Of a DNA stretch of 64,000 nt, positions 10,620 to 63,600 are shown piece by piece. The first letter of the stretch is position 1; each line of letters starts with the position of its first letter. The stretch is from assembly GCF_932526225.1 (NCBI RefSeq), contig NC_064047.1, positions 1,817,027 through 1,881,026 of the forward strand, in the 5' to 3' direction. The notes beneath the pieces are model-generated. The model saw only the letters and a list, made by a program, of their open reading frames with translations, had not been told where the DNA came from and did not search any database. The position numbers were made by a program, and so were the translations under genes. Origin of the DNA: Nematostella vectensis (Eukaryota).

Positions 10620-11115
10620 CCTACTTCCTCTTCCTGCATGTCACGTCACGTGATAGTAACCTCCTTTTTTGGGCGGTCACGTCACACAGTACTTACCTCC
10701 TCTCCTCCATTTCCGCCAGGTGATGTATACCCTCTCTCCACCATTTGACGTCACGTGATGATTACCTTTTCTTCCGGTAAGTGATGTCACGTGATTTTTA
10801 CCTTCTCCCTCTGAAGGTGACGTCACGTGATGCTTACCTCTCCTTCCGGCATGAGACGTCACGTGATGCTTACCTCCTCCCTCTGAAGGTGACGCCACGT
10901 GATGCTTACCTCCTCTTCAGGCATGTGATTCTAAACTCTTCTTCAGGCATGAGACGTCACGTGATGCTTATCTTCACTTTCTTAATGTGACGTTACATGA
11001 TGCTCACCTCCTTTTCCGGTAAGTGGCGTCACGTGATTCCTACCTCTTCTTCCAGTATGCGGTGTCACGTGATTTTGACCTTCACCCTCTGCATGTGACG
11101 TCGCGTGATGCTCAC
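10620..11115. repeat. About 60-bp minisatellite (about 8 copies) whose unit is the ASCC3 exon-25 donor junction (minus strand GAGGAG|GTAAGCATCACGTGACGTC)
   Basis: Every unit carries an AG|GTAAGC consensus donor plus a CACGTG E-box and a TGACGTCA CRE-like palindrome. The array abuts the real donor at 11115/11116. Confidence 0.8.
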
Positions 11116-11379
11116 CTCCTCTTCAGGCATGTGCAGCCATTGCTTGGGGTCATCCTGGGCGGCCAGGAAGGCGATCAAGTCCAGGGCTGTTAGTCTGGTC
11201 TGTCTTCTGGACGAGACGAAGACGAGGGTGGGCTTGGTCGGAGAGTGAATCCGGATCGCCTCGAAAGTTGGCTTGTTCATAGTAGCCATACGAGGGCAGT
11301 AATGCTTGCCGGGAAATCCTGTGATGTGAACCTCAAGAGGAACAGGGCGAACTGAAGGTCGGAAGTTGAACATACCAGC
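11116..11379 (-). CDS. ASCC3: ASCC3 exon 25 ([88 protein letters not shown])
   Basis: The [16 protein letters not shown] motif is conserved. Acceptor tccccaag| and donor GAG|GTGAGC. Confidence 0.9.
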
Positions 11380-11939
11380 CTTGGGGACGAAATAAGGTGG
11401 ATAAGTGGATGTCACTGACTGACAGGCGTGAAATGCATGTTTGTATTCACATACAAATCTGTAAACAACATGTTACCAAGAGAACTTGATATGTTCAATG
11501 TGATAATCATAGCTACGCCACAAGGGATAGAGAGCACCACCATCTAGCTCTCCCCAAAACTCGAACTGAATTTTATAAAAAAAATCCCTGCAGGTTAATG
11601 GAGCCAAATTGTATAATATTTAGCCTGCAGGGGTGATCACTTCTAGGTCGCTTAGGTCGTTTAATTACCAAGCAAAAACAAAATAAAAAATAAAAATACT
11701 TTTCAAAGCATATTTTCAGGTTAGATTTAGGTGTTAATTTAAAAAAATTATGTTGTTTTTATATCTTTAAATTTTAAAATTGTAGCATATACACATTCTA
11801 TTTTCTTTTAAATTTTGTTTTCCAGGTCACCCATTAATATCAGCTTTGCTGAAGATATTTAACTGGAAAAATATTTGTAAATAATAAATACAGTCGTTGA
11901 TACCAGATAAGAAATCACTGAATACATCCAAGTACTAAC

Positions 11940-12097
11940 CGATCCGATCCCGAGCCAATCCGCCAGGTCCCGAGCATTAGCGAGTGCAGTCGACAGGCCA
12001 ACGACACGGACCTTCTTGTCGGTGTGTGAGGAGATGAAGTTAGTTCTTGATACGATCACCTCAAGGACAGGACCTCGCTCATCCCCCAGCAGGTGAA
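11940..12097 (-). CDS. ASCC3: ASCC3 exon 24 ([53 protein letters not shown])
   Basis: Second DEIH box and STALANA motif. Acceptor ctgttccag| and donor TCG|GTTAGT. Confidence 0.8.
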
Positions 12098-12419
12098 TCT
12101 GGAACAGACAGGTTTAATACTGGTTACAAACAGGTTTGACCAGCCCCAACCTCACCTCAACATTGTTGGCTTCAACAATCAAGTGATTAGGCTAATTTGT
12201 GAGCTGCGACAGCTGCGTGGTACGGGCTTATAAAACAAGGGGTAGACCTGAGACAGCTACGTGGTACAAGGGGTAAAGCTGGTGACTTGATGTTTGTTGT
12301 TTTAGGAAAAGCACCAAGCCACTCCCTTCTTCCCCAATCTCACAGCATCGAACTGCATCAGGTGAATAATCATGTCTTCATTTTCCTACTCAAACCAGTC
12401 CACATACAAAGTCCATAGG

Positions 12420-12746
12420 GTCGACCACAAAGATAACTAGTATGAGATCTGCCAGCTCTGACTGACGCTCAGCCCAACAAACCAGTTGCATACTAGTTTT
12501 ACAGGTTAAAGAATCTACCTCTTTAATAATAACCAGATTGACTTGTTTGACATAGCTAAGCGTCTGCCAGCTCTGACTGATCCCAGCCCGACAAGCCAGT
12601 TGCATACTAGTTTTACATGTTTAAATATCTACTTCGTCAATAGTGAGCAGATTGAATTGTTTGACATAGCTACGCGTCTGCCAGCTCTGACTGATCCCAG
12701 CCCGACAAACAAATTGCATACTAGTTTTACAGTTTTAAGTATCTAC
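12420..12746. repeat. 120-bp tandem pseudo-copies (about 3 copies) of the 3' end of ASCC3 exon 23 plus its donor (…SWQTRSYVKQVNLLIIDE|GTAGAT)
   Basis: The minus-strand copies read SWQTLSYVKQFNLLTIDE|GTAGAT and ...IIKE|GTAGAT. Confidence 0.8.
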
Positions 12747-12900
12747 CTCGTCAATAATAAGCAGATTGACTTGTTTGACGTAGCTACGCGTCTGCCAGCT
12801 TCGACTGATGCCGTCCCACTTCTCCGGTGTCGTCACGATGAGGTCAGCCTGGCTAATGGAACGCGAGTCTGGTGTGACGTCACCCGTCAGTTCTATCACC
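12747..12900 (-). CDS. ASCC3: ASCC3 exon 23 ([52 protein letters not shown])
   Basis: Acceptor ccgttgccag| and donor GAG|GTAGAT. The downstream intron carries 2-3 pseudo-copies of this exon's 3' end plus donor. Confidence 0.85.
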
Positions 12901-13067
12901 CTGGCAACGGAATTATCTCATTATCCCATGATAAGGTTATTGCTTGCAGCGTACTCGGGAAGCAATTAAATGTAATTGTCCATTTCTTGGATGCAGTTTT
13001 TGTGCGTTAAACTGAAGAAAAATGGTATATAAGAAAACAAATCTCAGTTCTGGAATAAAAAACGTAC

Positions 13068-13153: not shown

Positions 13154-13439
13154 CTGTAAAAGGACAAAACAATTCATCTGACCTTTGATTCTTTAAAATA
13201 AAACCTCCCACATGATATGCTACCCAAAGGCCGGTTCCTAGATGGCAGGTTAGCCTTAACACACGGATAAATCGGCTATCCCGACATTTAATTGTACAAA
13301 AAGCGCATCCATCCCTGACTTAGCGTTAGCATGCTTTCTAGGAATCCGGCCCAGTACTTCTAGTGCCTCGGTCATTACTCGGCATAGAAGTAATTTGAGA
13401 TGTGCCTCGTTATTATGAGGGCATGACTGGGTACTGGGT

Positions 13440-14095
13440 TCGGGAGTGACTCGATACTATTCGGGTGTGACTCGATACTATTCGGGAGTGACTCGATACA
13501 ATTCGGGAGTGACTCGGTACAATTCGGGAGTGACTCGGTACAATTCGGGAGTGACTTGGTACTATTTGGGAGTGACACGGTACAATTCGGGAGTGACTCG
13601 ATACAATTCGGGAGTGACTCGTTACAATTCGGGAGTGTATCGGTACGATTTGGGAGTGACTAGGTACAATTCGGGAGTGACTCGGTACAATCCGGTAGTG
13701 ACTCGTTACAATTTGGGAAGTGACTAGGTACTATTCGGGAGTGACTCGGTACAATTCGGGAGTGACTCGATACAATTCGGCAGTGAATAAGTACAATTCT
13801 GGAGTGACTAGACACAATTCGGCAGTGAATAAGTACAATTCAGGAGTGACTCGTTACAATTCGGGGAGTGACTCGTTACAATTCGGGGAGTGACTAGGTA
13901 CAATTCGGGGAGTGACTCGGTACTATTCGAGAGTAACTCGAGTTCGTATTATTTGGGAGTGACACGGTATTATTCCGGAGTGACTTGGTACTATTCGGCA
14001 GTGACCCGGTACTATTCGGCAGTGACTCGGTACTATTCGGCAGTGACTCGGTACTATTCGGCAGTGACCCGGTACCATTCGTGTGCATTTAACTG
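13440..14095. repeat. 21-30-bp minisatellite (GGGAGTGACTCGGTACAATTC)n, more than 20 copies, starting just 3' of the exon-21 donor
   Basis: Direct reading. The unit does not contain the junction. Confidence 0.8.
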
Positions 14096-14399: not shown

Positions 14400-15154
14400 T
14401 TGCGTGATTTCAAGTTGTGTCGCGTGATGTCACGGCCGTCTTACGTGGCCATACGTATCTGTACGAGGATTGGGTGCGTGGCTAGCTTTGTTGCGTGACG
14501 CAATGGCGTTGTATTGCGTTATTCCAAGCAATGTTGCGTGACGTCACAATGCTGTATTACGCAACCATATGTTGCGTGACGCCATGGTGCTGTATTGCGT
14601 GATTTCAATTAATGTTGCGTGACGTCACGGTATAGTATGGAATCACGGGTGGCCCTCTCAACCCTGAATTTCACTTGTTGGACGTATGTGAGCTTACTAG
14701 AAGCTCGTGTTCCTCAGTTCCAAGATGGGTCATTATTAATACATTAGGATTTTAAATGTGAAGCGCTTAGAACATGGTTGATATAAGCGCTACATAAATG
14801 TCAATTGAATTAATTAATTTAATTATTACGCGACCATACAGTGCCTGTATCTGTACGGGGTTATGTTGCGTGACGCCATGGTGCTGTATTGCGATGATTT
14901 TTAGTAGTGTTGCGTGACGTCACGGTGCAGTATTGCGTGACAATACAGTACCTGCATCTGCACGGGGTAGTGTGCGTGACGCCACGGTGTAATGTTTGAA
15001 TTCAAGTAGTGTTGTGTGACGTCACGGTGTAGTATTACGTGACAATACAGTACCTGTATCTGCACGGGGTTGTGTTGCGTGACCTAATGTTGCAGCATCG
15101 CGTGATTTCAAGTAGCATTGCGTGACATCACGGTGTAGTATTACGTGACCATAC
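14400..15154. repeat. 60/120-bp minisatellite (about 6 copies) built from the ASCC3 exon-20 donor junction (minus strand AACCCCGTGCAGATACAG|GTACTGTATTGTCACG, i.e. …NPVQTQ|GT)
   Basis: Each unit repeats the last 18 nt of the exon plus a GTA donor and a TGACGTCA motif. The array abuts the real donor at 15154/15155. Confidence 0.8.
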
Positions 15155-16387: not shown

Positions 16388-17560
16388 CTGAGATCATAAT
16401 GAAAGGGTGTATAATGTGAGATACGAACACATAATCAAGGGGTGTATAATGTGAGATACGAACACATAATCAAGGGGTGTATAATGTGAGATACGAACAC
16501 ATAATCAAGGGGTGTATAATGTGAGATACGAACACATAATCAAGGGGTGTATAATGTGAGATACGAACACATAATCAAGGGGTGTATAGTGTGAGATACG
16601 AACACATAATCAAGGGGTGTATAATGTGAGATACGAACACATAATCAAGGGGTGTATAGTGTGAGATACGAACACATAATCAAGGGGTGTATAGTGTGAG
16701 ATACGAACACATAATCAAGGGGTGTATGATGTGAGATACGAACACATAATCAAGGGGTGTATAATGTGAGATACGAACACATAATCAAGGGGTGTATAAT
16801 GTGAGATACGAACACATAATCAAGGGGTGTATAGTGTGAGATACGAACACATAATCAAGGGGTGTATAATGTGAGATACGAACACATAATCAAGGGGTGT
16901 ATAGTGTGAGATACGAACACATACTCAAGGAGTGTATAGTGTGAGATACGAACACATAATCAAGGGGTGTATGATGTGAGATACGAACACATAATCAAGG
17001 GGTGTATAATGTGAGATACGAACACATAATCAAGGGGTGTATAATGTGAGACACGAACACATAATCAAGGGGTGTATAGTGTGAGATACGAACACATAAT
17101 CAAGGGGTGTATAATGTGAGATACGAACACATAATCAAGGGGTGTATAGTGTGAGATACGAACACATAATCAAGGGGTGTATAATGTGAGATACGAACAC
17201 ATAATCAAGGGGTGTATAGTGTGAGATACGAACACATAATCAAGGGGTGTATAGTGTGAGATACGAACACATAATCAAGGGGTGTATGATGTGAGATACG
17301 AACACATAATCAAGGGGTGTATAATGTGAGACACGAACACATAATCAAGGGGTGTATAATGTGAGATACGAACACATAATCAAGGGGTGTATGATGTGAG
17401 ATACGAACACATAATCAAGGGGTGTATAATGTGAGATACGAACCCAAAATTAAAGGTTGTATAATGTGAGATACGAACACATAATCAAGGGGTGTAGAGT
17501 GTGAGATACGAACACATGATCAGGGATGTATGGTGTGAGATAGGAACTTAAGATCAGGGG
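16388..17560. repeat. 40-bp minisatellite (GGGGTGTATAATGTGAGATACGAACACATAATCAA), about 29 copies, filling about 85% of the intron between exons 19 and 18
   Basis: Direct reading. The unit resembles the last 20 nt of that intron (cattatgatctcag). Confidence 0.85.
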
Positions 17561-19571: not shown

Positions 19572-19625
19572 CTACACAGGAAATCACACATTAAAGGTGT
19601 GAACAAATAAAAGCTCAGCACAACC

Positions 19626-20040
19626 ACCACAAGTGGCGCGATAGCTCAGTGATACGGGCTTCGCTTCTCAAGCAAGAGGGCGGGGGTCCGAACCCTGGTC
19701 AGATCAACTGATCAAGGATTTTTTTCAGAGGTGTAAATAGACTTGGCTCTCTACACTGGTGACTGTGAATCCCTCATCTTCTTGGATAAGGACGTTAAGC
19801 CGGAGGTCCCGTCACTCATCGCACATCATTAACCTGTATTGGGAGACGTAAAAGAACCGCTGGGGACGCTGGCTCGTGGTACCATCTTCAGTGACAATGC
19901 TTACAAACTAACTCACTCATGATTGTAAACTGCGTGGAGCAGTCCGTATCTACACACTGACGAGTGTGAGCATTTGATCATTTCGTTTGTTAAAGTGCGC
20001 TATACAAATGACAAACATTTTAGCGAATGCTAAGAAACCT
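19626..20040 (+). mobile_element. tRNA-derived SINE (tRNA-like head with A/B boxes, a body, and a conserved GTGCGCTATACAAATG tail motif)
   Basis: GGCGCGATAGCTCAGTGATA...GGGTCCGAACCC resembles a tRNA A-box and B-box, but the acceptor stem does not pair, so this is not a functional tRNA. Tail motifs of the same type recur at 7225-7260 and 14745-14810. Confidence 0.45.
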
Positions 20041-20339: not shown

Positions 20340-20882
20340 CGCCGTGTTAGTGAAGTTGGCTGGTCCTTACCTCGATAGTATCGAACTCGATGTAGAAGTG
20401 ACTGGTCGTGTTATCAAGGTCGGCTGGTCCTTACCTCAATAGTATCGAACTCGATGTAGAAGTTTCTGGTCGTGTTATCGAGGTCGGCTGATCCTTACCT
20501 CAATAGTATTGAACTCGATGTAGAAGTTACTAGTTGTGTTATCAAGGTCGGCTGGTCCTAACCTTAATAGTATCGAACTCGATGTAGAAATTTCTGTTTG
20601 TGTTATCAAGGTCGGCTGGTCCTTACCTCAATAGTATCGAACTCGATGTAGAAGTGACTGGTCGTGTTATCGAGGTCGGCTGGTCCTTACCTCAATAGTA
20701 TCGAACTCGATGTAGAAGTAACTAGTCGTGCTATCGAGGTCAGCTGGTCCTTACCTCAATAGTATCGAACTCGATGTAGAAGTTACTAGTTGTGTTATCG
20801 AGGTCGGCTGGTTTTTACCTCATTGGTATCGTACTCGATATAGAAGTGACTGCTCGTGGTCTCAAGGTCGCCTGGTCCTTAC
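20340..20882. repeat. 60-bp minisatellite (about 9 copies) built from the ASCC3 exon-15 donor junction (minus strand …TTCTACATCGAGTTCGATACTATTGAG|GTAAGGACCAGC)
   Basis: Units read FYIEFDTIE|GTAAGG, against the real exon end FYIKYDTIE|GTAAGG. Confidence 0.85.
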
Positions 20883-21047
20883 CTCTATAGTATCGTACTT
20901 GATATAGAAGTGACTGGCCGTTCTACCGAGGTCGGTGGCTGACAAGTAGCCTTGCTCCTCTGCAAATCTGATCATACGGGCCTTGTCCAGTTTACGAGCA
21001 GTCGACACTATCAGCTGCCGTCTGTAATTCTCGAGTGTCGGGTCATC
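20883..21047 (-). CDS. ASCC3: ASCC3 exon 15 (DDPTLENYRRQLIVSTARKLDKARMIRFAEEQGYLSATDLGRTASHFYIKYDTIE)
   Basis: Acceptor ttttcaag| and donor GAG|GTAAGG. The real donor is the first in a ladder of about 10 tandem donor copies. Confidence 0.75.
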
Positions 21048-21818: not shown

Positions 21819-21938
21819 CTCTTTATCCTTGTGAGGAATTCCATAGACTAGAGGGTTCTTGATCATTCGTATGTACAGGTAAGAGTAGCTCAGCCATTCC
21901 ACCGCTTCGTTTACATTAGTAACAGTACCAAGACAAAT
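21819..21938 (-). CDS. ASCC3: ASCC3 exon 14 ([40 protein letters not shown])
   Basis: Start of the winged-helix/Sec63 region. Acceptor cttgtag| and a weak donor GAG|GTTCGT. Phase 0 on both sides. Confidence 0.6.
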
Positions 21939-22400
21939 CTACAAGACAATGTATTACTTGAATGCGGCCTAGAAAGTCAAGTCTGAAAAAAAGGGGTGAT
22001 CATGGGATGTATAATAATCGTGTAGGGTCGAATAGTTATTCCACCGCTTCGTTTACATTAGTAACAGTACCAAGACAAATCTACAAGACAATGTATTAGT
22101 TGAATGCGGCCTAGAAAGTCAAGTCTAAAAAAAAAGGTTGATCATGGGATGTATACTAATCGTGTAGGGTCGAATAGTTATTCCACCGCTTCGTTTACAT
22201 TAGTAACAGTACCAAGACAAATCTACAAGACAATGTATTAGTTGAATGCGGCCTAGAAAGTCAAGTCTGAAAAAGGGGTGATCATGGGATGTATACTAAT
22301 CGTGTAGGGTCGAATAGTTATTCCACCGCTTCGTTTACATCAGTAACAGTACCAAGACAAATCTACAAGACAATGTATTATTAGTTTGGTGCGGCCCAAA
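21939..22400. repeat. 120-bp tandem repeat (about 4 copies) built from the ASCC3 exon-14 acceptor junction (minus strand ttgtcttgtag|ATTTGTCTTGGTACTGTTACTAATGTAAACGAAGCGGTGGAA)
   Basis: Each unit contains the acceptor plus the first about 45 nt of the exon. Confidence 0.85.
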
Positions 22401-23789: not shown

Positions 23790-24560
23790 AAATAAATAAG
23801 TCCACTCCCTCGCAGCCTACAAAAACCACTCGAACTATACAAGGCGTCGAGGGTATACTTATTGTGATCGTTAACTCGCTGGCGCTCGCTGATTTCCTGA
23901 GCAAGACTTTTCGCGTCAAGAAGTCGACTTATCTTCTCGTCATCCTGGCCGTGGCGGATCTGATGGTCGGGCAAAGCCTTACCATGGACTCCCTCTCAAC
24001 ATTAACAAAAGGGGTTGGCGCCGAGGAAGCCCGTATTTCATTCTATGTTATGAAGGTTTCGGTGAACGCGTCGCTGTTCTCGTCCACCTTCATAGCAATA
24101 GAAAGATCCTACGCCGTCCTGGTACCCTTTAGACATCGCCTTCTTACAAGCAAGCCGTACGGCGTAGCGATAACCTTGGTCTGGGTCCTGGCAATCATAA
24201 CCGAATTGTATAATGTACTTTAAAGGTCATTCCATCAAATCTTGACAGAGAAGGGTAAAATACTCTCCACAGTCAAAACAGGCCTGGCCCTCATTTCGTT
24301 AAAAGTAAAGTTCAGTTGCTATCTCGCTACTTGGTGCAGGGTGAAGTTTACTGTAAATCCAACAGCAGGGAGAGACAGCTCGTGAAATACAAACAAACTA
24401 ACGCAAACTTTATTCGTTACAACATTGGTGTCGTTTCTGCTGTTCTTTCCGTTGGCAATTGGTATTTTGTAATATGAATGGTAGAGGTTAAGGTGTCCCT
24501 TCTCGTAAACTTAGCGTGTCTTATGTACTTTAACTCCGCCGTTAACGTTCTGGTGTACTC
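23790..24560 (+). pseudogene. Intronless class-A (rhodopsin-like) GPCR pseudogene fragment inside an ASCC3 intron
   Basis: TM2 LAVADLMVG, TM3 IAIERSYAVLVPFRHR (an E/DRY-type motif), TM6 FLLFFPLAIGIL and TM7 NSAVNVLVY (NPxxY with P replaced by V) are recognisable. TM6 and TM7 lie in different frames separated by in-frame stops. No TM5 was found, and the N-terminus is truncated by a stop. Confidence 0.55.
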
Positions 24561-24989
24561 CCTGCGAATGGAAGAGTTCAAGAGGGAGGCGAAGAGGATC
24601 CTTAGGTGTGCTACCCTTAGCAAAGATTGCAAGTTTCATTCCTGCCGTCTGCAACAAGTGAAGAATACAATCACGAACACACTAGACAGGACAAACCTGT
24701 ACGACAAACGACGAAGAAAGGTGAAACCTCGACAGCCTTGGATACTGTTCCATCGACTAGACAAGACAACCTGACATTTACTGCATACAACGATTGGTAA
24801 GTCAACTTGAAAACAATGACTTTTTCATCCTCGGGAACCCAGGGCGTCGAGGCCACAGGCGCATGAGCGTGTCGGAACATGGCCGGCAGAGGGGTAGGGG
24901 ATAGTAGGCGGGAGAGAAGCGTTATCGCGCCTTCTTTCGCTGCCCTCAACGTCCTGGGTACCCGAGGATGTGACTTTTTCACTCAACTG

Positions 24990-26279: not shown

Positions 26280-27071
26280 ATGTTGCCAACCCCCATCTCG
26301 CCTTCCGCTTCCTCTTTCCTGCTTCATTCCTCCACTTATCCCTCAGCTATACAGGTCCAGGTACTTGACGGCAGGTTGACGCCCAAAGCCAGACTGCCCC
26401 CCTCTTCCACCCTTCCACTCCCTTTGTCTCCCTCCAACCCCTTACACCCATCCATAGCAGACCAGTGCCTTGATGATGTCAGTGTATAAGACGACACTTC
26501 AACCCAGAGAGACGTTCAAACCCTCCCCCCTCCCTCACATCCCTTCCAAGCGTTTCACCTCTCCTGCCTAGAGGAAGGTTAAGAGTCTAAAGAGTCGATA
26601 CCTTTGATGACAGCATGTAAAAAGAGAGAGATGCTTCAAGCCAGAGACACTAACCTATCCCCCCACCCACCCATCCCTCGCCAATGTTTTATCTCCCAAC
26701 TGTACTTTGTGCGTCAGCGAAGAGGCCCCAACAAGACCCCAACTTCTCCATCTCTTATTTCCTTTTTTTTGTACTTAAGATCAGTACCTTAATAATGACG
26801 GTGAAGTGGGTAAGACGGGGCTGACGCTTCAAGCCTGATAGACGGCCACAGCTCCCCCCGTACCATCCCATCAGCATTTCACCTTCCTCATCTTTCCAAA
26901 CATAAAAGTCTGTGAACTGGGAGTCTGTGAACTGGGAGATCGACGCCCTAACATGACATTCCGTCCCTGCCCCCATTTTTCTCCCTTCCTCTCTCTTCCA
27001 ACAAAAACCTTCCTCCCTCTCTTCCTGGCTCCACTATCCCCACCCCTCCCTCACATGTATAGGATCAGTAC
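26280..27071. repeat. Degenerate, irregular (145-270 bp) tandem copies of the ASCC3 exon-12 donor junction (minus strand ..CGTCATTATCAAG|GTACTGATC), each preceded by a CT/proline-codon-rich stretch
   Basis: Copies at about 26470 (CATCAAG|GCACTG), 26615 (CATCAAAG|GTATCG), 26805 (CATTATTAAG|GTACTGATC) and the real donor at 27071/72. Confidence 0.5.
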
Positions 27072-27642: not shown

Positions 27643-27777
27643 CTGCTTGAGGGCGCTACCGTAGTCTGGGGCCTGCTCTGCCCTGAAGAGCATGGAGTCC
27701 CCCTGATTGGAAGCCATCTCTCTTAACGTCATGGCCGTCCGCACGGTGGCATTTCTAGCATGAACAAACACCATGAC
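27643..27777 (-). CDS. ASCC3: ASCC3 exon 11 (VMVFVHARNATVRTAMTLREMASNQGDSMLFRAEQAPDYGSALKQ)
   Basis: The VMVFVHARNATVRTA motif is conserved. Acceptor tctcttcag| and donor CAG|GTACTG. Confidence 0.85.
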
Positions 27778-27960
27778 CTGAAGAGACAAATAAATAATTA
27801 TAGAACGAACAAACACCATGACCTGAAGAGACAAATAATTCTAGCATGAACAAACACCCTGACCTGAAGAGACAAATAAATAATTATAGAACGAACAAAC
27901 ACCATGACCTGAAGAGACAAATAAATAATTATAGAACGAACAAACACAAACCTGAAAAGA
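27778..27960. repeat. 45-bp tandem repeat (about 4 copies) duplicating the ASCC3 exon-11 acceptor (minus strand ctataattatttatttgtctcttcag|GTCATGGTGTTTGTTC)
   Basis: Direct reading. Each unit has a full polypyrimidine-AG acceptor plus the first 16 exon nt. Confidence 0.85.
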
Positions 27961-28125
27961 TAAATGACTACGTAGATACCATTTTCGTAATCATCACTAC
28001 AATAATTATCATTATGATCACCGTCATCAAAATCGTTTTCTTGTATTCAGATCAGTATGTTTCCGGTATTTTCAGAACAATCACCGTCATGATGATCATC
28101 ATCGACGTGATCATGAACATTACCG

Positions 28126-28129
<4 letters not shown>

Positions 28130-28163
<34 letters not shown>

Positions 28164-28422
28164 CATTATCATTATCATTATCATTATCATTATCATTATC
28201 ATTATCATTATCATTATCATTATCATTATCATTATCATTATCATTATCATTATCATTATCATTATCATTATCATTATCATTATCATTATCATTATCATTA
28301 TCATTATCATTATCATTATCATTATCATTATCATTATCATTATCATTATCATTATCATTATCATTATCATTATCATTATCATTATCATTATCATTATCAT
28401 TATCATTATCATTATCATTATC

Positions 28423-28460
<38 letters not shown>
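28130..28460. repeat. (ATTATC)n hexanucleotide microsatellite, about 55 units, flanked by ATC/ATG-rich low-complexity sequence (27960-28530)
   Basis: Direct reading. Confidence 0.95.
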
Positions 28461-28469
<9 letters not shown>

Positions 28470-28559
28470 CGTCCTTGCTATCGTAATCATTATTGTTAAC
28501 ATTATTATCAACATTGTCGCCATCTTCAAGCGCAGATCAATTCCACCTGTTTACGTAAA

Positions 28560-28930
28560 CAGGTCAAAAGGTTTAGATTTATAACATTAAGAATGAGCTG
28601 CAAGTCTTGATTCTGTTAGTTAAGGCGACAGTGTTCAGCCTAAAAGAGGTCAGAAATTTTCGTAAACAAGTCAGAACTTTTAGTAAACAGCTCAGAATTT
28701 TTCGTAACAGCTCAAAAGTTTTCGTAACAGAACTTTTCGTAAACAGGACAGAACTTTTCGTAACAGGACAGAATTTTTTGTAAACAGGTCAGAATTTTTC
28801 GTAATAAGGACAGACCTTTTCGTAACAGGTCAGAGTTTTTCGTAACAGGTCAGAATTGTTCGTAAACAGGTCAGACATTTTCGTAAACATGTCAGAACTT
28901 TTCATAAACAGTTCAGAAGTTTTCGTTAAT
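28560..28930. repeat. About 30-bp minisatellite (TTTTCGTAAACAGGTCAGAA), about 11 copies
   Basis: Direct reading. It is not junction-derived. Confidence 0.8.
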
Positions 28931-28994
28931 ATGTCTGAATTTTTCCTGGACCCGCGCCGTCATTTTCTTGGAACTGTAGAATTGCCTGCTATAC

Positions 28995-29243
28995 CTGGTA
29001 GCCCTTCTCCACGTTTTCTGTGACCTTCTCATAGCAGATCTTATCCATCTCGTGCGCTTGCTGGAACGGGTTCAGCCCTTTCACCCCGATGAACGTCTGT
29101 CCGAGGGGGACTGGGCGAAAACGTGAGTCGAAGGCGAAAAGACCTTTGTACGGGTCCACCCTTAGGAAGTGTGCGACGTCCAGATAGTTAGGGAGAGTAG
29201 CAGACAGTCCGACAATGCGAATCATGGACTGCGAGGATAACAC
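28995..29243 (-). CDS. ASCC3: ASCC3 exon 10 (VLSSQSMIRIVGLSATLPNYLDVAHFLRVDPYKGLFAFDSRFRPVPLGQTFIGVKGLNPFQQAHEMDKICYEKVTENVEKGYQ)
   Basis: Helicase motif III (SAT) is present. Acceptor attgtag| and donor CAG|GTATAG. Confidence 0.85.
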
Positions 29244-30400
29244 CTACAATACATATTAAGATAAATTCCAACAGATGGTTAGGAAGAGTGGCAGATAGGC
29301 CGACAATGCAAATCCTAGACTGTGAGGACAAAACCTACAATACATATTAAGATAAATTCCAACAGACGGTTAGGGAGAGTGGCAGATAGGCCGACAATGC
29401 AAATCCTAGACTGTGAGGACAAAACCTACAATACATATTAAGATAAATTCCAACAGATGGTTAGGGAGAGTGGCAGATAGGCCGACAATGCAAATCCTAG
29501 ACTGTGAGGACAAAACCTACAATACATATTAAGATAAATTCCAACAGATGGTTAGGGAGAGTGGCAGATAGGCCGACAATGCAAATCCTAGACTGTGAGG
29601 ACAAAACCTACAATACATATTAAGATAAATTCCAACAGATGGTTAGGGAGAGTGGCAGATAGGCCGACAATGCAAATCCTAGACTGTGAGGACAAAACCT
29701 ACAATACATATTAAGATAAATTCCAACAGATGGTTAGGGAGAGTGGCAGATAGGCCGACAATGCAAATCCTAGACTGTGAGGACAAAACCTACAATACAT
29801 ATTAAGATAAATTCCAACAGATGGTTAGGGACAGTGGCAGATAGGCCGACAATGCAAATCCTAGACTGTGAGGACAAAACCTACAATACATATTAAGATA
29901 AATTCCAACAGATGGTTAGGGAGAGTGGCAGATAGGCCGACAATGCAAATCCTAGACTGTGAGGACAAAACCTACAATACATATTAAGATAAATTCCAAC
30001 AGATGGTTAGGGAGAGTGGCAGATAGGCCGACAATGCAAATCCTAGACTGTGAGGACAAAACCTACAATACATATTAAGATAAATTCCAACAGATGGTTA
30101 GGGAGAGTGGCAGATAGGCCGACAATGCAAATCCTAGACTGTGAGGACAAAACCTACAATACATATTAAGATAAATTCCAACAGATGGTTAGGGAGAGTG
30201 GCAGATAGGCCGACAATGCAAATCCTAGACTGTGAGGACAAAACCTACAATACATATTAAGATAAATTCCAACAGATGGTTAGGGACAGTGGCAGATAGG
30301 CCGACAATGCAAATCCTAGACTGTGAGGACAAAACCTACAATACATATTAAGATAAATTCCAACAGATGGTTAGGGAGAGTGGCAGATGGCCGACAAGGC
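29244..30400. repeat. 90-bp minisatellite (about 13 copies) built from the ASCC3 exon-10 acceptor junction (minus strand tatgtattgtag|GTTTTGTCCTCACAGTCTAGGATTTGCATTGTCGGCCTATCTGCCACTCTCCCTAACCATCTG)
   Basis: Unit = the last about 27 nt of the intron including the acceptor, plus about 63 nt homologous to the exon start (real: GTGTTATCCTCGCAGTCCATGATTCGCATTGTCGGACTGTCTGCTACTCTCCCTAACTATCTG). Confidence 0.85.
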
Positions 30401-30599
30401 AAATATTAAACATCCTCTGTCTTAGCCATTTTATCATCCTAGCAAAGCACCACTTTTATCGGCTAAATAAGGGGAATTAATGTCATATTTTAGATTGAAT
30501 TTGTTAAATAAAGAATCAAACTTTGTTTTTAGATGGCCTCTAGATGTCTTACTAACACATGAGAGATTAGCGAACAGCAAAACAAATAATGCAACGTCC

Positions 30600-30790
30600 T
30601 TGCTTAAAGCCTCAGGGATACTCGGGTTTTGCTCGGAAATGCCGATGATTTCCTGTTGTAACGTCCTCGCTATAAAAAGCCTCAGGGCTTTTCGGGATTT
30701 ACTCGGAAATGCCGATGATTACCTGTCGTAACGTCCTCGCTAAAAAGTCTCGGGACTAATCAGGGTTTACTCGGAAATGGCGATGATTAC
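30600..30790. repeat. 60-bp tandem copies (about 3 copies) of the ASCC3 exon-9 donor junction (minus strand GCGAGGACATTACGACAG|GTAATCATCGCCATTTCCGAG)
   Basis: Direct reading. One copy has its donor mutated to GAAATC. Confidence 0.8.
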
Positions 30791-30955
30791 CTGTCGTAAT
30801 GTCCTCGCCACAAGGCACTCAATGACGGAGCCACGGTCATCATGCAGCAAATGAACCTCGTCAATGATGAGTAGCTTGACAAGCTGAGCCAGCGCTACAT
30901 CTCCAGTGGACTTACGTGTGACAACATCCCACTTTTCCGGGGTAGTGACAAGCAT
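30791..30955 (-). CDS. ASCC3: ASCC3 exon 9, containing the DEVH box ([55 protein letters not shown])
   Basis: The DEVH motif and a TTPEKWD motif are present. Acceptor tgtcgcag| and donor CAG|GTAATC. Confidence 0.85.
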
Positions 30956-62869: not shown

Positions 62870-63600
62870 GCTGCTGCTGCTGCTGCTGATAATGGTGGTG
62901 GTGGTGATGGTGGTGGTGGTGGTGGTGGTGGTGGTGGTGGTGGTGGTGGTGGTGGTGGTGGTGGTGGTGGTGGTGGTGGTGGTGGTGGTGGTGGTGGTGG
63001 TGGCGATGGCGATGGCGATGGCGATGGCGATGGCGATGGCGATGGCGATGGCGATGGCGATGGCGATGGCGATGGCGATGGCGATGGCGATGGCGATGGC
63101 GATGGCGATGGCGATGGCGATGGCGATGGCGATGGCGATGGCGATGGCGATGGCGATGGCGATGGCGATGGCGATGGCGATGGCGATGGCGATGGCGATG
63201 GCGATGGCGATGGCGATGGCGATGGCGATGGCGATGGCGATGGCGATGGCGATGGCGATGGCGATGGCGATGGCGATGGCGATGGCGATGGCGATGGCGA
63301 TGGCGATGGCGATGGCGATGGCGATGGCGATGGCGATGGCGATGGCGATGGCGATGGCGATGGCGGTGGCGGTGGCGATGGCGATGGCGATGGCGATGGC
63401 GATGGCGATGGCGATGGCGATGGCGATGGCGATGGCGATGGCGATGGCGATGGCGATGGCGATGGCGATGGCGATGGCGATGGCGATGGCGATGGCGATG
63501 GCGATGGCGATGGCGATGGCGATGGTGATTGTGATGGTGATGGTGATGGTGATGGTGATGGTGGTCATGTTGTTGATGATGATGATAATGATGATGATGA
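62870..63600. repeat. Compound microsatellite (GCT)n-(GGT)n-(GGCGAT)n-(GGTGAT)n-(GAT)n, about 730 bp, in TBX20 intron 4
   Basis: Direct reading. All four long six-frame ORFs here are artefacts. Confidence 0.95.

Follow-up and report, generated by a model that had tools for sequence, protein, structure and literature searches.

Tandem copies of the exon 11 splice acceptor in Nematostella vectensis ASCC3: a candidate mirage minisatellite

Repeated splice signals in described systems and the ASCC3 locus

Close tandem acceptors, among them those of the NAGNAG type, are separated by 3-18 nt and make use of a common branch point and polypyrimidine tract. Larger repeats in which splice signals are multiplied have been described in amphioxus under the name of mirages (Canestro et al. 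2002, as cited in PMC3087553). Mirages are built of units of 10-160 bp that carry splice signals, they come in donor and acceptor types, RT-PCR has demonstrated that splicing is normal, and the arrays are unstable in length (PMC3087553; PMC3902484). In human, the first unit of the 37-bp VNTR in intron 7 of F7 spans the exon 7 donor; the pseudo-donors stay silent, and the most upstream of the identical donors is chosen by 5'-to-3' scanning (PMC1557585). Tandem duplication of AGGT segments has also been linked to intron gain and intron sliding, as proposed in the Rogers model (presented in PMC3087553) and in the case of the potato RdRp gene (PMC4974935). The array described here, located in intron 10 of the ASCC3 gene of N. 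vectensis, is best explained as a young, lineage-specific minisatellite, that is, a mirage in the amphioxus sense and a near-neutral product of slippage, a reading to which we give a probability of about 0.7.

ASCC3 is a conserved ribosome-quality-control helicase. In the window (the whole 64-kb stretch of DNA that was analysed), a double-cassette Ski2-like helicase of the ASCC3 type is encoded on the minus strand between 38921 and 3954, and all ASCC3 exons, introns and junction arrays mentioned below are on this strand. Splice sites were fixed one by one by means of the reading frame and GT-AG, with a human ASCC3 sequence serving only as the tblastn guide, which gave collinear matches over the entire protein. 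The resulting model comprises 34 exons, all GT-AG, and encodes 2192 aa that are 59% identical to the human guide sequence. In the database, the matches to exons 10-13 bear the name "activating signal cointegrator complex subunit 3", and a protein search with ASCC3 returned only short fragments of other species, at most 81% identical. In the 2007 annotation, the product of the same locus has 2187 residues and contains ASCC3_N, DEAD, Helicase_C and Sec63 domains. Exon 11 (27643-27777, 135 nt, phase 0-0), so labelled already in the earlier note and confirmed as such by the splice model, encodes VMVFVHARNATVRT...SALKQ and maps to the beginning of the Helicase_C/RecA2 domain in the first helicase cassette (Pfam Helicase_C). 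It is separated from exon 10 (28995-29243) by intron 10 (27778-28994), whose 1217 nt are about 68% tandem repeat: the 45-bp array that concerns us here, (ATTATC)57 at 28129-28470 and a 21-bp array at 28643-28945. The (ATTATC)57 tract is one of the very long pure microsatellites of the window, together with (TGG)37 followed by (TGGCGA)93 at 62893-63561, near the window end. The exon 10 donor, TACCAG/gtatag (here and below a slash marks the splice junction), must pair with one of five acceptors.

Several other features surround or interrupt the gene. According to the 2007 annotation, BLOC1S3 (190 residues, 39602-42088, plus strand) lies head to head with ASCC3, whose start codon is at 38921. Intron 12 contains, on the plus strand at 23792-24771, a fragment of a rhodopsin-type GPCR (Pfam 7tm_1, positions 2-119 of 260, E = 8e-11) with further pieces in other frames after the 7tm_1 match, which is probably a nested pseudogene. 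In intron 15, just upstream of exon 16, a stretch resembling the 3' half of a tRNA (GGGTTCGGACCCC... on the gene strand; 19625-19700, minus strand) received no ARAGORN or Rfam call and may be a remnant of a tRNA-derived SINE; no Rfam family and no tRNA were found anywhere in the 64-kb window.

Anatomy and origin of the exon 11 acceptor array

The tandem array, including the real acceptor copy, occupies 27762-27965 (TRF period 45, 4.7 copies, 87% matches, score 317). Its repeat unit consists of the last 29 intron nt, gttctataattatttatttgtctcttcag, which hold the polypyrimidine tract and the AG, followed by the first 16 nt of the exon. When 27985-27740 is read in the orientation of the gene, five successive acceptor modules appear in the order E, D, C, B and A, each with its own polypyrimidine tract. 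Module A, ctcttcag/GTCATGGTGTTTGTTCATGCTAGAAATGCC..., from which an open reading frame runs on, is the 3'-most copy and the real acceptor of the splice model (intron side ttatttatttgtctcttcag, 27778-27797), which places the decoys B to E inside intron 10. The 24-mer CTCTTCAG/GTCATGGTGTTTGTTC is found exactly at 27762-27785 (the real acceptor, exon start 27777), at 27807-27830 (decoy B, pseudo-exon start 27822) and at 27893-27916 (decoy D, pseudo-exon start 27908), so that modules B and D both read ctcttcag/GTCATGGTGTTTGTTC; these two decoys match the real junction at 100% over at least 55 nt. Decoy C, also located by motif match (27848-27871, pseudo-exon start 27863), reads ctcttcag/GTCAGGGTGTTTGTTCATGCTAGAA and differs from the 24-mer by one substitution (GTCAGGG); it belongs to a 41-nt unit and carries 25 exon nt (..GTTCATGCTAGAA). 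Decoy E, identified by sequence reading and unit alignment (27938-27959, pseudo-exon start 27951), reads cttttcag/GTTTGTGTTTGTTC; this old copy has degenerated by a deletion of 2 nt and several substitutions, its AG being intact. Superimposed on these modules is a higher-order duplication of 86 bp at 27753-27924 (TRF 2.0 copies, 98%). It takes in one 45-bp unit together with the acceptor and 25 exon nt, and one or two positions distinguish its two copies. The 24-mer did not occur once in 100 dinucleotide-preserving shuffles, as against four occurrences in the real sequence, three of them exact. The array is real and far beyond chance. An ORF of 217 aa on the plus strand (27846-28499), which runs through the array and the ATTATC microsatellite, was dismissed as a by-product of the repeats.

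The earlier note had described four 45-bp copies of ctcttcag plus 16 exon nt at 27778-27960. Tandem acceptor copies are indeed present at exon 11, the motif and coordinates being reproduced on the minus strand by TRF and motif matches, and that interval coincides exactly with the decoys that precede the real exon. The number of four decoys stands as well. Their description as equal 45-bp units does not, the acceptor spacings being 45, 41 and 45 nt with about 43 nt to copy E; the figure of 16 exon nt is right for the 45-bp unit and wrong for the 41-nt unit, which has 25, and ctcttcag with its exon bases is letter-perfect in two decoys only, C having one substitution and E being degenerate.

The internal order of the array bears on the suspicion that one acceptor was spuriously expanded during assembly. 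The array measures only 204 bp and displays a structured history, with 45-, 41- and 86-bp events, a decayed copy and a point difference between copies, and this history makes an artefact unlikely. In addition, the 2007 assembly, which is based on Sanger reads, reproduces other arrays found in the window, and an assembly error is in our view scarcely credible. The comparison with that assembly covered window positions 34275-55807, that is, outside the exon 11 array. Over 11.4 kb (34275-45716) the window is 99.965% identical to N. vectensis scaffold DS469525.1 of GCA_000209225.1, and a 28-bp x 16 and a 69-bp x 4.1 array are reproduced exactly. A 44-bp minisatellite at 49909-51585 measures 1677 bp in the window vs 1439 bp in the 2007 assembly (L001, 16618-18056), a difference due either to copy-number variation or to partial collapse, and the 69-bp array at 47672-48400 corresponds to a run of N there. 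This comparison indicates that the minisatellites of the window are real and at least sometimes variable. Absence of the exon 11 array from another haplotype would mean only copy-number polymorphism, as expected for a minisatellite. Within the region compared lies a matrix-metalloproteinase gene (44209-47661, plus strand). Its product, which is 99% identical to an N. vectensis protein, has PRCGMPD as cysteine switch, a zinc site and, at the C terminus, a ShK-like domain. The 28-bp x 16 array (47079-47525) stops about 20 nt before the last exon of this gene and does not span the junction. An amphioxus source for the DNA, which the resemblance to mirages might suggest, was rejected on the strength of this protein match and of the near-identity to scaffold DS469525.1.

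With respect to the origin of the array, GTTC is found at both ends of the unit (...GTTTGTTC|GTTCTATAA...). The tail of the 45-bp unit, GTTCTATAA, which might be the trace of a longer exon copy, is identical at 6 of 9 positions to the next nine exon bases, ATGCTAGAA, for which a rough estimate gives a chance of about 0.03. Judging from the GTTC at the unit ends, the first 45-bp duplication would have arisen by slippage or unequal exchange between the two GTTC tetranucleotides that bracket the unit, and the older copy E would have decayed afterwards. A later duplication of 86 bp, comprising the 16-nt tract, 16 exon nt, 29 intron nt and 25 exon nt, would then have generated copies C and D as the most recent event. 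The array thus appears to record at least three duplication events in which one breakpoint fell among the first 25 nt of exon 11. The complete identity of B and D over at least 55 nt and the 98% identity of the 86-bp repeat show that the array is young.

A comparison with other species agrees with the youth of the array. Six orthologous loci, with 53-78% protein identity, were fetched through single-exon ORF matches from eukaryotic contigs of ENA/JGI metagenome assemblies. All six hold the intron at the same position (phase 0, before (V/A)MVFVHAR) and have a single-copy exon 11 acceptor, so that the array is confined to the Nematostella lineage. Intron gain by tandem duplication, as in the Rogers model, was rejected because the intron position is ancient and common to the six loci, and no new intron is present. 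Arrays do occur at other junctions of these orthologues. In L004, whose protein is 78% identical to that of N. vectensis vs 72% to the human guide sequence and which on these values is probably another cnidarian, a 78-bp x 6.3 array (11914-12403) combines the final 68 nt of exon 12 with gtaagtattg, its unit of 26 codons being open in frame across all copies, and a 142-bp x 2.7 array (13394-13771) lies across the exon 13 donor. In L005 there are about four copies of the exon 19 acceptor (tag/GTCACATGATYCATCAC) at 12790-12960. As far as these sequences indicate, it is the class of event that recurs across ASCC3 orthologues, and the individual arrays do not persist.

Splice-site strength and consequences of decoy use

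Acceptors were scored with a position weight matrix built from the gene's own 33 acceptors, and donors with a matrix that was likewise gene-specific. The exon 11 acceptor is the second strongest of the 33, with 14.6 bits. Decoys C and D reach the same 14.6 bits, B scores 11.6 and E 10.8, the median of the real acceptors being 6.2. Since the decoys score like the real acceptor, the splice motif is unable to tell one from the other. What distinguishes the real copy would have to be found downstream: only the 3'-most module leads into the rest of exon 11, with a purine-rich, enhancer-like stretch and a donor 135 nt on. Enhancer action falls off with distance, and exon definition together with enhancer proximity would be expected to pick the 3'-most acceptor. 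Against the neutral view it has to be said that the decoys are transcribed first, and that a first-come or 5'-to-3' scanning rule would favor them.

The consequences of choosing a decoy can be read from the splice model. Joining exon 10 to C adds 86 nt, to D 131 nt, each with a premature stop, and to E 174 nt containing a stop; in the three cases the stop is met within about 40 codons, and we infer that such transcripts would mostly be cleared by nonsense-mediated decay. Joining exon 10 to B adds 45 nt that are in frame and stop-free and encode 15 residues, VMVFVRSIIIYLSLQ, so that rare use of this decoy would lead to an in-frame insertion of that length. B being an exact acceptor copy with an open extension, it might be regarded as a genuine alternative 3' splice site, which would produce an isoform with VMVFVRSIIIYLSLQ at the start of RecA2. 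However, the insertion would double a conserved buried beta-strand motif (VMVFVHAR) and add hydrophobic junk, so that the product would probably misfold. It was found in no protein of the searched database, which contains no N. vectensis exon 11 product (best match 77%). The 2187 residues of the 2007 annotation, compared with the 2192 of the decoy-free model, leave no room for 15 more. A genuine alternative splice site at B is very unlikely.

The possibility that the copies behave as small exons of their own has to be considered too. The putative donor after the 16 exon nt, TTC/GTTCTA, scores -6.9 bits, which amounts to no usable donor, and for this reason the decoys are not mini-exons. Tandem exon duplication giving mutually exclusive exons was rejected on related grounds, given that the copies include no more than 16-25 of the 135 exon nt and that no donor follows. 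A different type of intermediate use would be recursive splicing, in which exon 10 joins a decoy, CAG/GTCATG is regenerated as a donor and the intron is removed stepwise to give the correct mRNA. AG/GT is present in every copy, and the regenerated CAG/GTCATG scores 6.4 bits with the donor matrix of the gene; this is low in the range of the real donors, 6 of the 33 scoring less, and lies beyond the 95th percentile of the gene's GT sites. The C at +3 and the T at +5 are nevertheless poor donor positions, and the same CAG/GTCATG constitutes the mature exon 10/exon 11 junction, which must not be spliced again. Moreover, the steps of 45-131 nt would lie at or below the usual minimum intron length, intron 10 measures only 1.2 kb, and the sibling acceptor array at exon 14 begins with AT. 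These features make ratchet points at the decoys highly improbable. On the reading of the array as a near-neutral slippage product, the copies would be without a function of their own and the array is probably harmless.

Junction arrays along ASCC3 and comparison with known systems

All 66 splice junctions of ASCC3 were scanned for extra copies, the copy counts given here including the real copy. At least eight junction-spanning minisatellites were found in the N. vectensis gene. On the donor side, arrays are located at exon 9 (30593-30808, 68 bp x 3.2, 3 copies), exon 15 (20343-20935, 64 bp x 9.3, 9 copies), exon 20 (14824-15154, 102 bp x 3.2, with degenerate copies), exon 23 (12448-12809, 114 bp x 3.2, 3 copies) and exon 25 (10746-11133, 36/72 bp, 4-7 copies). 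On the acceptor side, they affect exon 10 (29181-30404, 91 bp x 13.5, 13 copies), exon 11 (27762-27965, 45 bp, 4-5 copies) and exon 14 (21896-22380, 142 bp x 3.4, 4 copies). The exon 10 array repeats tgtattgtag/GTTTTGTCCTCACAG... with 63 exon nt in copies that are 98% identical; the real acceptor at 29243 is preceded by 12 decoys whose AG is intact. Throughout the ASCC3 junction arrays, the AG or GT is intact in nearly all decoys. The donor of exon 12 and the acceptor of exon 28 each have a single weak extra copy.

Two further observations were made at junctions of this gene. An isolated 23-nt copy (96%) of the exon 12 donor junction (GTCATTATCAAG/gtactgatc) is found at 26779-26801 (minus strand), 284 nt into intron 12, and the orthologous junction in L004 is the one occupied by the 78-bp x 6.3 array. 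A 35-bp x 33 array (16395-17547, minus strand) ends 8 nt upstream of the AG of the exon 19 acceptor, the same junction that is present in about four copies in L005. At the position where the real exon 19 site reads ...tgatctcaG, the units of the 35-bp array read ...gtatctcaC, and the resemblance suggests that this may be an old acceptor array in which the AG was lost in every copy.

The earlier note proposed that the duplicated segment is centered on the junction itself. The segment does span the junction, with its 29 intron nt and 16 exon nt; centering is loose, since the sibling units include 16-63 exon nt and 11-99 intron nt. The association of duplications with junctions in ASCC3 is upheld by numbers. 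By TRF coordinates, 7 of the 19 minisatellites with a period of at least 18 overlap a junction, the exon 20 donor array abuts its junction at 0 nt, three further arrays end 4-8 nt from one, and only 3 of the 19 are more than 100 nt from any junction. Under a rough null model, in which one unit per array was placed uniformly in the array-collapsed gene, 2.0-2.5 junction-spanning arrays were expected vs the 7-8 of 19 found, with P(>=7) of about 0.0015-0.0065 and an excess of about threefold. Pure neutral slippage does not account for this excess. A wider proposal would be that junction minisatellites occur systematically in the genes of cnidarians, and perhaps in many invertebrates whose genomes are rich in minisatellites, as the result of a bias of breakpoints to exon edges or of mild favoring of multimerized splice sites; we consider it tentative and rather doubtful. 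If it were true, acceptor arrays would show that the choice of the 3' splice site in cnidarians is set by downstream exon context and not by scanning or transcription order.

The enrichment of junction arrays in ASCC3 and their recurrence at other ASCC3 junctions of two other species also speak in favor of a regulatory role, in which the decoy array would be a cis-acting modulator of splicing whose polypyrimidine-AG modules recruit U2AF/U2 or act as a sink, the copy number tuning exon 11 splicing or ASCC3 mRNA. The decoys are intact and strong sites, and in the human F7 intron 7 VNTR the repeat number reportedly correlates with F7 expression. On the other hand, the array is absent from the exon 11 junction in six of six orthologues, and the exon 11 copies are too young for constraint to show. 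The sole array old enough to test, the 64-bp donor array at exon 15, is without extra conservation of the splice motif, with 0.44 mismatches per column in the motif vs 0.56 in the rest of the unit. The motif being as variable as the remainder, there is no sign of selection for or against decoys, which fits neutral drift, and a modulator is on balance unlikely.

In the literature searched, a limited set that gives no proof of novelty, no report of such arrays in Nematostella was found, and mirages have so far been described only in a handful of amphioxus genes; the present array would extend the phenomenon to a cnidarian. Five acceptors of equal or near-equal strength in a row, of which only the last would yield a working ASCC3, constitute a natural splicing experiment. 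They also raise practical problems: gene predictors may choose the wrong acceptor copy, and short RNA-seq reads may be misassigned because the real acceptor and two of the decoys give the same junction sequence, exon 10 joined to GTCATGGTGTTTGTTC. In evolutionary terms, junction arrays are raw material for exon extension, intron sliding and new exons. A single array is of modest interest, and it is the gene-wide excess and the predicted use of the last of several identical acceptors that merit more attention.

Compared with known systems, the exon 11 array is closest to the mirages of amphioxus. It consists of head-to-tail copies with a unit of tens of bp (45, within 10-160); this unit crosses a splice junction, splice signal included, and the genuine copy stands at the array edge, contiguous with the exon, the decoys lying in the adjacent intron. 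By these three structural features, read here from DNA, the array would be counted as a mirage, normal splicing and instability having been shown experimentally in amphioxus. In both systems acceptor and donor versions exist and several are possible per gene. The differences are the host, a cnidarian and not a cephalochordate, and the high density, with at least eight junctions involved in one gene. As in the Rogers model, splice signals are part of what was duplicated in tandem, and a new exon/intron boundary might in principle start from such a duplication, but no new intron was formed at exon 11. With NAGNAG sites the array has in common that several AGs compete for one upstream donor; it falls outside this class by its spacing of 41-45 nt and the separate tract of each site, and all decoys but one break the reading frame. 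The F7 VNTR likewise presents identical tandem pseudo splice sites beside a real one that is the exon-attached copy, and is a natural model of splice-site choice. It matches the sibling donor arrays of exons 9, 15, 23 and 25, in which the authentic copy is the most upstream. By contrast, exon 11 has an acceptor array whose authentic copy is the most downstream, so that a scanning rule would pick a decoy. By analogy, the F7 scanning rule would explain the donor arrays of ASCC3 and not its acceptor arrays. If RNA confirms clean use of the last copy, this would point to context-driven, exon-definition-like acceptor choice in a non-bilaterian animal, which would complement the donor-side rule derived from the human F7 VNTR.
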